Of a stretch of 64,000 nt of DNA, positions 58,299 to 64,000 are shown piece by piece (the stretch's first letter is position 1; every line of letters begins with the position of its first letter). Origin of the DNA: Candidatus Hydrogenedentota bacterium (GTDB lineage Bacteria; Hydrogenedentota; Hydrogenedentia; Hydrogenedentales; JAEUWI01); NCBI GenBank assembly GCA_034669905.1, contig JAXMOL010000002.1, positions 160,001-224,000 of the forward strand. The letters are read 5' to 3'. A program made the translations under genes and the position numbers. The notes below the pieces were generated by a model that saw nothing but the letters and a program-made list of their open reading frames with translations, made no database searches and was not told the origin of the DNA.

Positions 58299-58892
58299 AT
58301 GAGCGAATACGTCCCACGCATTCTCGCCTTCGCCGGCAGCACCCGTAGCGATTCCTACAATAAGAAGCTGGCCGCCGCCGCGGCAGAGGCCGCCCGGGCT
58401 GCCGGAGCCGACGTGACCCTCGTCGACCTTCGTGACTACCCCATGCCCTTATTTGATGAAGATCTTGAATCGGCAGAAGGGCTTCCCGAAAGTGCGGTCA
58501 AGCTACGGGAATTGTTCCTGCGTCATGACGGACTGATCATCGCCTCACCGGAATACAACGGTTCCCTGAGCGCGGTGTTGAAAAACACCATTGACTGGCT
58601 GAGCCGTCGCCAGGGCGATGAAACACCGCTCATCTGCTTCCGCGAAAAGGTGGCCTTACTCCTCGCCGCTTCCCCCGGTGGCCTCGGCGGCCTCCGTGCC
58701 TTGCGACACCTCAACACCATCCTCCACGGGATTCAGGTCATCGTGCTCCCCGAACAGAAGGCCATTCCTGCGGCCCACAAGGTCTTCGACGACACGGGCA
58801 TCGCCGATGCCAAAGTGGCGAAATCCGTCGCCGATCTCAGCACCCGGCTCGTTGAAATGACCACGCGCATCCACCAGAAAAACAACGGCTAA
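58299..58892 (+). CDS. NADPH-dependent FMN reductase (ChrR/YieF-like)
   Basis: GSTRSDSYN, SPEYNGSLSAVLKNTIDWLSR, ASPGGLGG. Confidence 0.93.
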   Translation: MSEYVPRILAFAGSTRSDSYNKKLAAAAAEAARAAGADVTLVDLRDYPMPLFDEDLESAEGLPESAVKLRELFLRHDGLIIASPEYNGSLSAVLKNTIDWLSRRQGDETPLICFREKVALLLAASPGGLGGLRALRHLNTILHGIQVIVLPEQKAIPAAHKVFDDTGIADAKVAKSVADLSTRLVEMTTRIHQKNNG

Positions 58893-58916
58893 AGTCCAAC
58901 CGCCCCCTGCCGATAA
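58889..58916 (+). promoter_or_regulatory. sigma28 promoter 1
   Basis: TAAA-N15-GCCGATAA; the -35 box overlaps the FMN reductase stop codon. Confidence 0.85.
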
Positions 58917-58922
58917 GTAAAG

Positions 58923-59104
58923 CACAGGCCAAGACACGGAAGTCGCGGCGACGAATTGACACGGAGGTCAACGGAGGTGGCGAAAGAGACTAGATGAACC
59001 GTCGGGTGTCATCCCAACACCAACGCGATCGACGTTTTGTCCCACAGTCTTTCCATCCATGAGAGGCGCCATAGCACACGCTGTTGTGGCGTTTTTCTAT
59101 TTTA
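58923..59104 (+). ncRNA. candidate sigma28-dependent sRNA 1 (antisense to flagellin 2 RBS, CsrA-type loops)
   Basis: Promoter, GAC-ACGGA-GTC hairpins, AUCCC hairpin, 26-bp complement of 62168-62196, terminator at 59066-59104. Confidence 0.75.
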
Positions 59105-59191
59105 TCCGCCCTTTTTCCCGCGTACGCTGCCCCACGCCCCCCGACTTTTCGCCCACGCCCCAGCCGCCCATCCAACGCCGGCACATTTCCG

Positions 59192-59219
59192 CTAAAGGTT
59201 CTCGCTCCACCGCCGATAC
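59192..59219 (+). promoter_or_regulatory. sigma28 promoter 2
   Basis: TAAA-N15-GCCGATAC. Confidence 0.8.
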
Positions 59220-59225
59220 TCTAAT

Positions 59226-59393
59226 CACAAGGCGACGACACGGAGGTCAACGCCGGCACGACACGGACGTCATTGCTACTTATCCTGGATACATACTCAC
59301 AGGGTGGCCAATCCCACCACCTGCTATTGGGAGTGCCCCAGGGTCTTACCTCTGAAACGCGTTGCGGTCTACACTGCAACGCGTTTCAAATTT
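59226..59393 (+). ncRNA. candidate sigma28-dependent sRNA 2 (antisense to flagellin 3 RBS, CsrA-type loops)
   Basis: Two GAC-ACGGA(G/C)-GTC hairpins, AUCCC hairpin, CCCAGGGUCUUACCUCU seed, 13-bp perfect terminal stem at 59353-59388. Confidence 0.72.
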
Positions 59394-59425
59394 ATGGGGC
59401 ATACTCCACCGATCCCATATTTCTG

Positions 59426-59453
59426 CTAAAGTTTTCTGCGGCACCGCCGATAC
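59426..59453 (+). promoter_or_regulatory. sigma28 promoter 3
   Basis: TAAA-N15-GCCGATAC. Confidence 0.8.
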
Positions 59454-59459
59454 CATCAT

Positions 59460-59590
59460 ATTAAGAGACAGATTTAACGTGTTCTTCAAGGAACGCTGGG
59501 GTGTCTATCCCGCACCGTATTCCAGCCGTTAATCTCTGCTTCTTACCTCCCCTGGTTGCGTCATGGCATTGAACCATGGCGCATCTTTTA
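59460..59590 (+). ncRNA. candidate sigma28-dependent sRNA 3
   Basis: AUCCC hairpin, UCUUACCUCC seed, terminator TGCGTCATGG/CCATGGCGCA-TCTTTTT. Confidence 0.68.
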
Positions 59591-60361
59591 TGTGGGCTCC
59601 ACACCGTCATACAGCACTTCCTTCATGACTAGCCCCTGGGGCGGTGCGCAATGCCCCAGAAATGGCCCCCCCGACACCAACGCCTCCTGAAGAAACTCCG
59701 GACCAAAACGCCCCCGCCCTATCTCCACCAACGTGCCGGAAAGATTACGCACCATCTTATAAAGGAATCCATTGCCAAAAAACTCGATGTGCCACAGGTT
59801 CTGGCCGTCCCGGGGGCCCACCACCGCCCCTTGATGGAGCGTCGCGGCGTAAATCGTACGCACCGTCGTCTTCATCTGACACCCCGTGCTCTGAAACCCT
59901 GCGAAGTCATGGGTCCCCTCCAGTTGAGGCAAGAGCGACCGAATAAGGTCGATATCCACCCCGTAAGGAACCTGCCAGCTATAGGGAGCACTGAAGGGGT
60001 CCATTTCCCGACTGAAGTGAAAGGTATAGCAATAGCGCTTGGCCTTCGCTGAAAATCGGGCGTTAAAATCGGCAGAAACCGCTTCCAACGCCGTAATTTG
60101 GATTTCCGGCTCTAACATGCGACACAACGCATGGCGCAACGTGGGCGGCACCGCCTTGGGCCATTCACAGGAAAAGACCTGTCCCAGGGCGTGGACCCCC
60201 GCATCGGTGCGGCCGGCCCCCTGAATGCGGATAGGCTGAGAGGCAATCCGGCTCATAGCCGCCTCAATATCCCCTTGAACCGTCCGTTGGTCCTGTTGGG
60301 CTTGCCAGCCGGAGAAGGGCGTTCCAAGATAGCGCACAGTGCCTTTGAGTGTGGTGGTCAT
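59588..60361 (-). CDS. truA: tRNA pseudouridine(38-40) synthase
   Basis: FSGWQAQ, AGRTDAGVHALGQ, FNARFSA, GTHDF, GFLYKMVR, APPQGL. Confidence 0.96.
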   Translation of the reverse strand: MTTTLKGTVRYLGTPFSGWQAQQDQRTVQGDIEAAMSRIASQPIRIQGAGRTDAGVHALGQVFSCEWPKAVPPTLRHALCRMLEPEIQITALEAVSADFNARFSAKAKRYCYTFHFSREMDPFSAPYSWQVPYGVDIDLIRSLLPQLEGTHDFAGFQSTGCQMKTTVRTIYAATLHQGAVVGPRDGQNLWHIEFFGNGFLYKMVRNLSGTLVEIGRGRFGPEFLQEALVSGGPFLGHCAPPQGLVMKEVLYDGVEPT

Positions 60362-60672
60362 GGGCCTATTGTAATCGAGCCACGGATCCACCTACCACTT
60401 TCCGAGGGCCCGGAGAGCCAACGGTCGCGCTCTCACCCCACCATTTCCCGGCAGCCCCTCCACTGGGCGCAATACCTGGCGTCCATTCGGGGACTTATTT
60501 TCGGTTATCCGGGCCAGGCCGTGCACCGCATACCCCGGATGGCATCCAAAAAAACGAGGAAATTTTTCATTTTTTTTGCGGTGCGCGGTCCCGTATTGGC
60601 TGTTTCGGATTATTCGAAATCGTTTATGTCGGATTGAATCGGTGTGGGTCGGTGATTTTTTTTCAGAAAAAA

Positions 60673-60700
60673 CTAAAGTTGTCGCTCAAGTTGCCGATAA
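60673..60700 (+). promoter_or_regulatory. sigma28 promoter of the flagellin array
   Basis: TAAA-N15-GCCGATAA preceded by A/T tracts at about 60545-60672. Confidence 0.9.
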
Positions 60701-60706
60701 ATACTA

Positions 60707-61145
60707 CAGGTAAGCCGAAACAGGCCTTATTCAGGACAGTTTAAAAAAGTGAAATACGGAGTCCAGGGACGGGTTTCCGCGACATCATGGAGGATGGCGC
60801 ATTCAGCGCGGGGTATGCACCCGCACGACGGCCTCGAGGCCGACGACAACAATTGAATCACGTTGATCGAATACTTCGGTATGGATGAAGGCAGAGCAGG
60901 ATGCTCAACGGCTTCATCAAGAAGAAACGTCGCAGTTAACGAATTGCCTGAAGCACGGGACATGCCTCAGGGATAACGGAGACTGCTTTCGAAATCAATG
61001 GGACCAATCGATTTCACGTAGAAATCGGTTTCTGACGCACCGGACCATGGGACGGTAGCCGCCACACCGTGGTGGGTTACCCGGGATGGGACGTCAGAGG
61101 GAGCGCAAGGATGCGCTCTACCAACCACTCACGGAGGAATACATC
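60707..61145 (+). promoter_or_regulatory. long GGA-rich structured leader (multiple CsrA-type sites)
   Basis: About 19 GGA versus 2 TCC by hand count; GAGCA-GGA-TGCTC and GAGCGCA-AGGA-TGCGCTC hairpins. Confidence 0.7.
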
Positions 61146-61961
61146 ATGGGACTTCGAATCAACACCAATGTGTCTGCGCTCAACACGGCGCGGGTCTTAC
61201 GTAGCTCAACGCTGGACTTGAACAAGAGCCTGCAACGGCTCTCCAGCGGATTGCGTATCAACCGTGCGGCCGATGACGCCGCAGGCCTGGCCATCGCCGA
61301 GGGTTTTCGCTCGGTGGTACGCGGCACGCAGGTTGCCCAGCGCAATGCGCAGGACGGAATCAGCCTGGTGCAGACGGCGGAAGGCGCATTGAGTGAAACG
61401 ACCAACATACTGCAGCGTATTCGCGAGCTCGCCGTACAGGCAGCCAACGGAACGCAGAGTACGGCAAACCGCGTATCGCTGGATGCCGAAGTCGATCAAC
61501 TGTTAGCCCAAATCGATGATATCGCGTTTGACACGGAATTCAACGGTGTCCGGGTACTCAGCGGCGGCACTGTGCTGACGCTTCAAACCGGCGCTTTCCA
61601 GGGACAAAACCTGTCGATTGTGGTGGGTGCTGCGGGTCAGAACCAGATCGGTGTTTCGCCGGTTAACCTGCAAACCGCTGCCGGTGCCATCAGTGCACTC
61701 AGTACGGTAGACGGTGCCCTGCGCTCGGTGAACACGCTCCGGAGTAATCTGGGTGCCTTCCAGAACCGTCTGGAGTTCACCATCAGCACGCTCGCAATCC
61801 AGGAAGAAAACTCTTCCGCGTCCGAAAGCGCTATACGAGATGCCGACATCGCCCAGGAAACGATTCGCTTTACGCGGAATCAGATCCTGGTAAACGCCGG
61901 TACATCGATCCTGGCCCAGGCCAACATCGTGCCACAGACGGCACTGCAGTTGCTGGGTTAA
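61146..61961 (+). CDS. fliC: flagellin 1 (271 aa)
   Basis: MGLRINTNVSAL, RLSSGLRINRAADDAAGLAI, LGAFQNRLE, IRDADIA, QLLG. Confidence 0.97.
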   Translation: MGLRINTNVSALNTARVLRSSTLDLNKSLQRLSSGLRINRAADDAAGLAIAEGFRSVVRGTQVAQRNAQDGISLVQTAEGALSETTNILQRIRELAVQAANGTQSTANRVSLDAEVDQLLAQIDDIAFDTEFNGVRVLSGGTVLTLQTGAFQGQNLSIVVGAAGQNQIGVSPVNLQTAAGAISALSTVDGALRSVNTLRSNLGAFQNRLEFTISTLAIQEENSSASESAIRDADIAQETIRFTRNQILVNAGTSILAQANIVPQTALQLLG

Positions 61962-62189
61962 TACACGTCGACAACCAGGGCGGCCGAACCTCAAGGGATA
62001 CGAGGGGCCGGAAACGGAATTTATGGCCACCGGCCGCCCTGATAATCTTCAACGTAGAGAAAGGAGAACATAGGACTGCGAGTACTTAACGAGTCGCGTC
62101 GTTGAGCATTCGGTTTTTGTCAACTATCACGGAAGAATGAATAACAAAGGGATCGGGAATCCCTTTGGCCACTCATGGAGGAAAGTACT

Positions 62190-63008
62190 ATGGGACTTCG
62201 AATCAACACCAACGTGGCGTCGCTTAACTCGGCGCGTACCCTGAGCCGCTCTACGAGCGCGCTTAACAAATCGCTGGAACGTCTCTCCAGTGGTCTCCGC
62301 ATCAACCGCGCAGCCGATGACGCTGCCGGTCTGGCCATCGCCGAAGGATTTCGGTCGGTGGTGCGGGGCACCCAGGTCGCCCAGCGCAACGCACAAGATG
62401 GGGTCAGCCTCGTGCAAACCGCGGAAGGGGCGTTGAGTGAAACCACCAACATCCTGCAGCGGGTACGCGAACTGGCCGTACAGGCCGCGAACGGAACGCA
62501 GAGCTCTGAAAACCGTGCGGCCCTGAACACCGAAGTATCGCAGCTGCTCGCACAGATCGATGATATCGCCTTCGACACCGAATTCAACGGTGTGGCGGTA
62601 TTGAGCGGCAGCAGCACCCTCACCTTGCAAACCGGCGCCGAATCGGGTCAGACCCTGCAGATTGCTATCAGCAGTGGTGCGGGCCAGGCCGCCATCGGCG
62701 TGAGCACCGTCAACATTTCCACCTCGGCCGGCGCCGTCAGTGCCCTCAGCCAGGTGGACGTAGCCCTGCAGCGGGTCAATTCCCTCCGCAGTAACCTCGG
62801 TGCCATCCAGAATCGTCTCGAATTCACCATCAATACCCTGGCGATTCAGGAAGAAAACTCGGCCGCCTCAGAGAGTGCGATCCGGGATGCGGACATTGCC
62901 CGCGAAACCATTCAGTTTACGCGGAACCAGATTCTGGTCAGTGCCGGCACGTCGGTACTTGCCCAGTCCAATGTGGTTCCCCAGACGGCGTTGCAGCTTC
63001 TCGGCTAA
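62190..63008 (+). CDS. fliC: flagellin 2 (272 aa)
   Basis: Same flagellin motifs; GGAGG RBS. Confidence 0.97.
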   Translation: MGLRINTNVASLNSARTLSRSTSALNKSLERLSSGLRINRAADDAAGLAIAEGFRSVVRGTQVAQRNAQDGVSLVQTAEGALSETTNILQRVRELAVQAANGTQSSENRAALNTEVSQLLAQIDDIAFDTEFNGVAVLSGSSTLTLQTGAESGQTLQIAISSGAGQAAIGVSTVNISTSAGAVSALSQVDVALQRVNSLRSNLGAIQNRLEFTINTLAIQEENSAASESAIRDADIARETIQFTRNQILVSAGTSVLAQSNVVPQTALQLLG

Positions 63009-63227
63009 TTCGCCATCCATAGTTTAAACCGGTTGTAACGTGGTGGCTCCGGCCCTTCCTTTGGAGGGGTCGGAGCAGCACCGTAACTATACGGAAGGAG
63101 TGCATCAGTCGGCCGATTTGCCGTCCATTTACCCACCGCGGGGATAAATAGACGATGAGAAGGCCACGAAGAACATACACCGGGTTGGTTAGGGATACCC
63201 GACCGGGTGATCTTGGAGGTAAGATCC

Positions 63228-64000
63228 ATGGGATTACGTATAAATACGAACATCCCGGCTCTCAACACGAGCCGGGTGCTCGATCGTTCCAGCCGTGCCT
63301 TGAACCGCAGTCTGGAACGGTTGAGCAGTGGTCTCCGCATCAATCGCGCAGCCGATGATGCGGCAGGCCTCGCTATTGCCGAGGGCTTTCGCACCCAGGT
63401 GCGGGGCACCCAGGTGGCGCAACGCAATGCGCAGGATGGAATCAGTCTCGTACAGACGGCCGAAGGGGCGTTGAGCGAAACGACCAACATCCTGCAACGC
63501 ATTCGAGAACTCGCGATTCAGGCCGCCAACGGAACCCAGAGTTCCGCCAACCGCCAGTCACTCAACAACGAAGTGCAGCAGCTGATTGCCCAGGTGGAAG
63601 ACATCGCTTTGGACACTCGGTTTAATGGCATCAACGTGTTGAGCAGCAACCAGTCCATCACGCTCCAGACCGGAGCCAATCCGAGCCAATCCCTTCAGGT
63701 GACCATCGGCGGCGCACGCAGCACCGATCTGCGCGTAAGCGCCGTCAATATTTCGGCCGCGGCAGGCGCTATCAATGCCATCAGCCAGGTCGATATCGCG
63801 CTGGCAAGTGTGAACACCTTACGGAGCAGTCTCGGTGCCTTTCAGAACCGGTTAGAATTCACCATCAATACCCTGGCCATTCAGGAAGAGAATTCGGCGG
63901 CCGCCGAAAGTGCTATCCGGGATGCCGACATTGCCCGGGAAACGATTCAGTTTACACGGAATCAGATCCTCGTGAATGCCGGTGTCAGTGTATTGACCCA
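63228..64000 (+). CDS. fliC: flagellin 3, truncated by window end
   Basis: MGLRINTNIPALNTSR..RLSSGLRINRAADDAAG..LGAFQNRLEF; GGAGGT RBS; open to 64000. Confidence 0.95.
   Translation, partial: MGLRINTNIPALNTSRVLDRSSRALNRSLERLSSGLRINRAADDAAGLAIAEGFRTQVRGTQVAQRNAQDGISLVQTAEGALSETTNILQRIRELAIQAANGTQSSANRQSLNNEVQQLIAQVEDIALDTRFNGINVLSSNQSITLQTGANPSQSLQVTIGGARSTDLRVSAVNISAAAGAINAISQVDIALASVNTLRSSLGAFQNRLEFTINTLAIQEENSAAAESAIRDADIARETIQFTRNQILVNAGVSVLT

Follow-up and report, generated by a model that had tools for sequence, protein, structure and literature searches.

A conserved family of small RNAs with seeds complementary to flagellin start regions in Candidatus Hydrogenedentota: predicted paralog-specific control in trans

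The locus studied here raises the question of whether a free-standing small RNA could single out one flagellin among several by pairing with its start region. In this study, we performed a computational analysis on a 64,000-nt stretch of a Candidatus Hydrogenedentota genome (the window), which holds three of the five flagellin genes of this genome in tandem and, also in tandem, three of its four paralogous sRNAs. An initial annotation had noticed that a segment of sRNA 1 (58923-59104, + strand, ends predicted from promoter and terminator), located at 59039-59067, is antisense to 62168-62196 around the start of flagellin 2 (62190-63008, +), and had claimed 26 Watson-Crick pairs over a distance of about 3.1 kb. 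Re-reading confirmed the letters of both stretches, and antiparallel alignment recovered the 26 pairs (26 identities in 30 columns), with two mismatches and one bulge per strand. The stretches lie 3100 nt apart and form the longest inverted pair within 58800-64000. The claimed coverage of GGAGG and AUG held for GGAGG (62177-62181) and for the U and G of the start codon (62190-62192), but the A is unpaired: it faces a C of sRNA 1 here, and seven of nine genus members have a U at that place of the sRNA.

When the sRNA 1 seed was searched against the whole 7.44-Mb genome, blastn returned E=3.0, and the match is therefore not significant on sequence alone. Candidate start regions, 15,502 in all, came from a crude gene set of 5,812 ORFs; we ranked them with our own simplified, IntaRNA-like script rather than IntaRNA, using nearest-neighbour stacking values and opening energies from ViennaRNA. 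By hybridisation of the whole sRNA 1 alone, flagellin 2 was eighth of the 15,502. With both opening energies included (a scan of all 15,502 starts, with rescoring of the 447 still able to win), it came first at -16.3 against -14.2 for the next start, a lead of only 2.1 kcal/mol in a simplified model and a crude gene set. The 38-nt seed window likewise placed flagellin 2 first among all 15,502 starts (-38.8 against -30.9), as well as among the 2,440 starts with a strong Shine-Dalgarno (SD) sequence. The top position anticipated by the initial annotation was thus reached with accessibility and for the seed. Its remark that flagellin 1 (61146-61961, +) matches sRNA 1 poorly was also borne out, with -20.6 and rank 403 for the seed and -1.6 with accessibility; the four other flagellins scored from -4.2 to -0.2 when accessibility was included. 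The seed is partly held in the own stem of sRNA 1, its 5' half being paired and its 3' half mostly open, at an opening cost of about 15 kcal/mol. Unconstrained duplexfold of the whole RNAs was uninformative.

sRNA 1 has its own promoter and terminator and lacks a conserved reading frame. Specifically, a strict pattern match (TAAAG ... GCCGATAA; 58890-58916, +) to what we take to be the sigma28 consensus precedes it, and the -35 box begins with the stop codon (58890-58892) of the FMN-reductase-like gene that lies upstream. Two small CsrA-type hairpins follow within 58933-58969 (+; 58933-58944 and 58958-58969, each with a 3-bp GAC/GUC stem and an ACGGA-containing loop), then a long central stem that ends in a loop rich in C (UCCC; 59005-59021, +), the seed and a predicted intrinsic terminator (59061-59104, +). 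This RNA was conserved in all nine genus genomes and in two more family genomes of the alignment. Both-sided changes were found in 11 of 48 sRNA 1 pairs among 11 homologs, a count reached by none of 500 shuffles, for a structure derived from the same alignment and homologs that are related kin; folding alone was modestly better than shuffles (z -1.82). Rfam gave no gathering hit anywhere in the window and, at E<=1, no match to the sRNAs, and a sigma70 promoter scan found no promoter for them. A peptide from sRNA 1 was rejected: the ATG of its sole small ORF (ATG 58995, 22 codons) is missing in two relatives (G004 and G010), and indels shift the frame. RNA-library contigs of close relatives (three studies, mostly 85-95% alike) cover 58752-59675 piecewise and, starting near 60715, the flagellin cluster, indicating presence only, without strand, ends or level and with DNA possibly included. 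This comparison used contigs of four of eight runs, all eight of which contained at most 0.11 of the words; 58300-58681 and the larger part of truA are bare of contigs, a gap that carries no weight.

The flagellin cluster lies beyond truA (tRNA pseudouridine synthase, TIGR00071 above cut-off; 59588-60391, -), which separates it from the sRNA cluster. It begins with a sigma28-type promoter (60674-60700) and a 439-nt GGA-rich leader (together 60674-61145, +), followed by flagellins 1, 2 and 3, the last (63228-64000, +) extending 46 bases beyond the window end. The strict sigma28-type pattern occurs 11 times in the genome and four times in the window, at sRNAs 1, 2 and 3 and at the flagellin cluster; TAAAG-N15-GCCGATA promoters together with FliA in the genome predict a sigma28 regulon. 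No strict sigma28-type motif was found upstream of flagellin 2 or 3, and these genes are therefore probably transcribed from the promoter of the cluster. Sense-strand GGA occurs 19 times in the leader at 60707-61145 (twice on the other strand), 10 times in 61962-62189 and seven times in 63009-63227, so that the leader and both intergenic regions, full of GGA hairpins, resemble a message-embedded CsrA sponge. The RsmY model matches the leader weakly at 60885-61015 (E=0.39, under the gathering threshold), and the long leader is kept in relatives. Before flagellin 2, a hairpin with a GGGA loop (62145-62167, +; a candidate CsrA and loop-loop site) adjoins the target site (62168-62196, +), in which a CsrA-type AUGGA motif overlaps GGAGG and is followed by the spacer and the start codon. 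In addition, a terminator-like hairpin (62085-62110) between flagellins 1 and 2 could add transcriptional polarity. A 107-aa ORF just outside the window after flagellin 3 (L004:2441-2761) had no NCBIfam hit and presumably resembles FlaG. The fifth, divergent flagellin (51% identity; G000:C39:65835, L005) has neither a strict sigma28 motif upstream nor a good match among the four sRNA seeds.

Neither the paralogous family of sRNA 1 nor the CsrA-type hairpins figured in the initial annotation. A family model built from 19 sequences of eight genomes matched in 54 of 61 relatives, all named relatives being Ca. Hydrogenedentota; flagellin was likewise found in 54 (weakly in G012). The same seven genomes lack the sRNA, flagellin and CsrA, and CsrA is missing from four more. 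Six of the seven are more than 90% complete, and five come from one family, so that the joint absence amounts to approximately three events rather than seven. In a sample of the phylum, the sRNA was present in 101 of 135 genomes and flagellin in 104; within one family (f11), each was present in 2 of 23. Two genomes of the phylum outside the order contain flagellin without a match to the sRNA model (R1), which also had no match in five additional genomes, a run without positive control. Of 153 model matches in the 61-genome sample, 113 members were analyzed; the strict promoter motif preceded 81 of them and 13 of 17 in a held-out set. Genomes carry one to five sRNA paralogs with differing seeds. 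Literature searches, covering the top-ranked matches and mainly openly readable papers, brought up no account of this sRNA family or of any sRNA from the phylum. We regard the family as a real, conserved feature that lies outside Rfam and is separate from FlaX, the flagellin-regulating sRNA of Vibrio. Several unusual flagellin frames appeared in the relatives. The third cluster position of genus g17 holds short flagellin-like ORFs of 164-167 aa (G026:C8:75525, G033:C4:8806, G050:C44:60931, G055:C13:56786 and G059:C93:21994), and two frames with early stops (G038:C52:17322, 97 aa, with TAG inside the match; G057:C46:5417, 61 aa) are broken or misassembled.

Covariation between seed and target, on which the initial annotation had made its proposal depend, was observed across the relatives. 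Seeds were taken by a fixed rule (the 36 nt ahead of the terminator stem) and compared with 160 flagellin starts from 44 genomes, of which the test used the 42 with two or more starts; flagellin sets are incomplete in some genomes, and kin are not fully independent even between families. Seeds paired better with flagellin starts of their own genome than with those of swapped genomes across 22 genera (-29.9 vs. -24.9 kcal/mol, sd 0.6) and across 11 families (-32.1 vs. -26.4 kcal/mol), with p<=0.0005 in all 200 resamplings at either level; the own genome ranked best for approximately 10.5 of 22 genera and 6.7 of 11 families. For 11 new, held-out genera, all from a single family and comprising 17 RNAs and 40 starts, the values were -32.3 vs. 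-29.2 (p=0.0007), and the own genome was best in only three of them. Pairing with an own flagellin reached -20 or better in 90 of 106 RNAs, and the gap between best and second flagellin was at least 5 kcal/mol in 66 and smaller in 40. Less favourably, the seed of sRNA 1 hardly varies across the genus, while the spacer of the flagellin 2 target drifts. In one relative (G011), seed and target are altered together 5' of the SD. Another relative has a 321-aa flagellin with an atypical SD (G030:C35:46342, L136) and a matching sRNA at G030:C183:1-153. A further family member of G011 (C1:59285-59463, L065) carries four ANGGA motifs and a seed without a good fit to any of the five flagellin starts examined in G011 (-8.6), and may have a different target or be a pure CsrA binder.

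These comparisons also bear on whether the antisense match belongs to RNA or to DNA. In relatives, the sRNA and flagellin loci are unlinked; the one-contig genome G025, for instance, places them about 780 kb from each other. This agrees with the action in trans first suggested; the complementarity thus concerns the ribosome-binding site (RBS) of an unlinked gene and is imperfect, conserved and accompanied by compensatory changes. Among mismatches in seed duplexes, all scored alike, G-U outnumbered A-C by 81 to 33 (65 distinct seeds in the 83 pairs that passed, out of 106), with 14 genera for the excess, five ties and two opposed. A decaying DNA copy should give equality, and the excess therefore points to selection acting on RNA pairing. 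The two stretches do form an inverted pair 3.1 kb apart, as the inverted repeats of an invertible segment would, and TldR systems, which employ TnpB/TldR-type guide RNAs, have a connection to flagellin. We nevertheless consider a DNA-level element of either sort extremely improbable. DNA inversion and a guide RNA against flagellin DNA were both rejected on the gapped arms, the unlinked or distant loci in relatives and the G-U bias; in addition, the TnpB/Cas12f zinc-ribbon domain PF07282, the single Pfam domain searched (control positive), was not found in this genome and no TnpB-family protein stands beside the sRNA.

A second contact may add to the seed pairing. Leaders with GGGA 18-52 nt before the start were best targets in 53 of 80 cases, compared with 12 of 78 for the remaining leaders, and UCCC lies 5' of the seed in 56 of 60 confident RNAs. 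In a post hoc comparison over 16 genera, loop complementarity was slightly higher in own than in swapped genomes (5.45 vs. 4.99 nt, median p 0.013). The loop-loop contact is weaker evidence, because it was noticed after the fact, and for sRNA 1 in this genome it would comprise only 4 bp.

The sibling sRNAs fit flagellin starts less closely than sRNA 1 does. sRNA 2 (59193-59394, +) has its own sigma28-type promoter (59193-59219), two CsrA-type hairpins, a hairpin at 59353-59388 and a seed (59336-59352) complementary to the flagellin 3 start (63216-63232). sRNA 3 (59427-59592, +), with its own sigma28-type promoter (59427-59453) and terminator (59557-59592), lacks the 5' CsrA hairpins, and its seed (59541-59550) is complementary to 63215-63224. 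Flagellin 3 was the best flagellin for sRNAs 2 and 3 (ranks 46 and 121 of 15,502), and flagellin 2 for sRNA 4 (rank 215 of 15,502). With accessibility, sRNA 3 did not favour flagellin 3 (-1.9), its best flagellin being beaten by 428 of 1,250 rescored starts out of 14,032 candidates. The assignment of sRNAs 2-4 to flagellins rests on the family-wide covariation, and they may have other targets. The fourth paralog (G000:C63:15884-16072, L073) has a sigma28-type motif upstream. Its terminator loop (AGUCCCAU), found repeatedly in the genus, is complementary to the start-codon region of flagellins 1 and 2 and might provide a third point of contact or regulate flagellin 1.

The 5' hairpins raise the role of CsrA, whose gene adjoins that of FliW in this genome. 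They are the best conserved 5' feature of the sRNA, and their motif agrees with the CsrA SELEX consensus RUACARGGAUGU (PMC7652899); the two hairpins of sRNA 1 probably bind CsrA. Among the 113 members, the CANGGANG motif occurs twice in 83, three times in four, once in one and not at all in 25. One reading of these features, together with the co-occurrence of sRNA and CsrA, is an RNA that works mainly as a CsrA sponge of the CsrB/RsmZ type, its antisense stretch being a relic of an inverted duplication of a flagellin leader. This seems very unlikely to us: CsrB/C carry 13-22 GGA motifs (PMC6546359), whereas sRNA 1 lacks both the many GGA hairpins of CsrB, RsmZ and RsmY, having two, and any Rfam Csr/Rsm match, the seeds follow the leaders of each genome, and G-U exceeds A-C by 81 to 33 where a decaying DNA relic should show equal numbers. 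Another reading gives CsrA a part in the pairing itself. A CsrA dimer would bridge the 5' hairpins of the sRNA and the leader hairpin, would be required for pairing and would replace Hfq, so that the sRNA would serve as a specificity factor of CsrA, active only once FliW releases CsrA. In this 95.7% complete genome, neither Hfq (PF17209; control positive in five of 14 genomes) nor ProQ (PF04352; E. coli control positive) was found while CsrA and FliW stand side by side; two or three motifs are present in 87 of the 113 members, GGA hairpins lie immediately 5' of the target sites, and in B. subtilis CsrA promotes the pairing of SR1 with ahrC (PMC6546359). We still hold obligatory CsrA assistance to be rather doubtful. 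The motif is absent from 25 of 113 members, including sRNA 3-type RNAs with well-matched seeds. For this reason, we favour a CsrA module that serves a second purpose separable from pairing, such as titration or stabilisation, over an obligatory matchmaker. Moreover, a duplex of at least 25 bp may need no chaperone.

Starting from the complementarity, the ranking, the conservation, the co-occurrence and the covariation, all of which are established by computation, the best explanation as a whole, and in our judgement a likely one, is that sRNA 1 is a free-standing RNA driven by sigma28 that represses flagellin 2 in trans, with its paralogs directed at others. Ranking, covariation and unlinked loci support the paralog-specific translational control in trans that had been proposed at the outset, of which repression is the part that we infer. 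Each sRNA of the family probably matches the start of one flagellin copy and lowers its production. In this model, sigma28 would make both the flagellin message and the sRNAs. sRNA 1 would nucleate through the unpaired, C-rich part of its seed on the SD region of flagellin 2; its own stem would then open and pairing would zip across the start codon, with a second contact between its UCCC loop and the GGGA loop of the leader. With SD and start codon covered, 30S binding would be blocked and translation of flagellin 2 reduced, perhaps with a contribution from RNase III cleavage of the duplex. Flagellin 1 would be spared by sRNA 1, and paralogs would use different seeds for different flagellin paralogs. 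As sigma28 would drive both the sRNAs and fla1-fla2-fla3, apparently from one promoter for the latter, the arrangement would constitute an incoherent feed-forward loop, which may set the ratio of flagellins from a single message.

The target site overlaps a CsrA-type motif, and pairing could therefore act otherwise than by repression: it might evict CsrA, protect or process the polycistronic message, or let the flagellin leader capture the sRNA and thereby bring about degradation of its CsrA-binding module, a form of feedback. RNase III is encoded in the genome, duplexes are imperfect across the whole sRNA family, and some flagellins are activated by FlaX (bioRxiv 10.64898/2026.08.28.747715). 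An outcome of this kind appears unlikely to us, as SD, spacer and start lie within the duplex in almost every confident pair (pairs selected for strong pairing, and hence illustrative), leaving no space for 30S binding, and activation by FlaX opens a structure that hides the RBS rather than covering the RBS (bioRxiv 10.64898/2026.08.28.747715).

Parts of the preferred model, repression of flagellin 2 by sRNA 1, are already known from other bacteria, namely RBS silencing of one flagellin paralog (FlaX), paralogous sigma28 sRNAs (CjNC1/4) and pairing RNAs that bind CsrA. First, FlaX of V. cholerae and V. parahaemolyticus blocks 30S binding on flaB and changes filament composition (PMC11879080; bioRxiv 10.64898/2026.08.28.747715). 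Like the family here, as predicted, it pairs in trans with the leader of one flagellin paralog at several contact sites. In contrast, FlaX is released when RNase E cleaves the 3' UTR of a sigma54-dependent major flagellin, and it requires ProQ (PMC11879080), whereas the present RNAs are free-standing genes with sigma28-type promoters, one to five paralogs and CsrA-type hairpins, in a genome where ProQ and Hfq were not found. sRNA 1 lies upstream of the flagellins and beyond truA rather than in a flagellin 3' UTR, and the search of G000 for the ProQ domain PF04352 argues against ProQ association, as that for PF17209 does against an Hfq-dependent sRNA. By this comparison, the family is functionally FlaX-like in its predicted action, without the defining features of FlaX, and separate. 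Second, CjNC1 and CjNC4 (FlmE) of Campylobacter are likewise paralogous, sigma28-dependent sRNAs in a CsrA-FliW organism (PMC4626219; PMC11187230) and repress flagellar 5' UTRs independently of Hfq (PMC4626219). They differ in being about 44 nt long and in their predicted targets, which are flagellar genes under sigma54 rather than a separate flagellin paralog for each RNA, and their summary does not mention a CsrA module (PMC4626219). Third, the sigma28-controlled UhpU, MotR, FliX and FlgO of E. coli also pair with flagellin mRNA, but are described as UTR-derived and Hfq-linked and as pairing within the coding sequence of a single flagellin (PMC10578931). Fourth, McaS, GadY and SR1 combine mRNA pairing with CsrA binding in one RNA, as proposed here (PMC7652899; PMC6546359), without flagellin-paralog specificity in the cited accounts, unlike the present family. 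Finally, the Hag-FliW-CsrA switch of B. subtilis shares the adjacent CsrA and FliW genes and a GGA over the flagellin SD, but as outlined in the source it involves one flagellin and no sRNA (PMC7652899), compared with five flagellins and four sRNAs here.

There is also a broader proposal, which we put forward tentatively as a possibility somewhat short of even. It envisages a phylum-wide RNA address code, in which the seed and C-rich loop of every sRNA paralog would evolve in step with a single flagellin leader and the CsrA module would couple the RNA to the FliW-CsrA secretion checkpoint. If true, one RNA would free or recruit CsrA while silencing a chosen flagellin paralog, and sRNAs and FliW would act jointly on CsrA without Hfq or ProQ. 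A 2020 review describes joint action of FliW and sRNAs on CsrA in any species as remaining undetermined (PMC7652899). With the family described here, such joint action could be examined using no more than short synthetic RNAs plus two small proteins, and the dozens of natural seed/target pairs in the family provide built-in compensatory controls.

Taken together, 101 of the 135 genomes sampled from a phylum that is known here through genome assemblies alone contain an sRNA family outside Rfam, and the target of such an sRNA can be deduced from co-evolution alone. For these bacteria, the family would offer a route to tune the make-up of a multi-flagellin filament from a single message.
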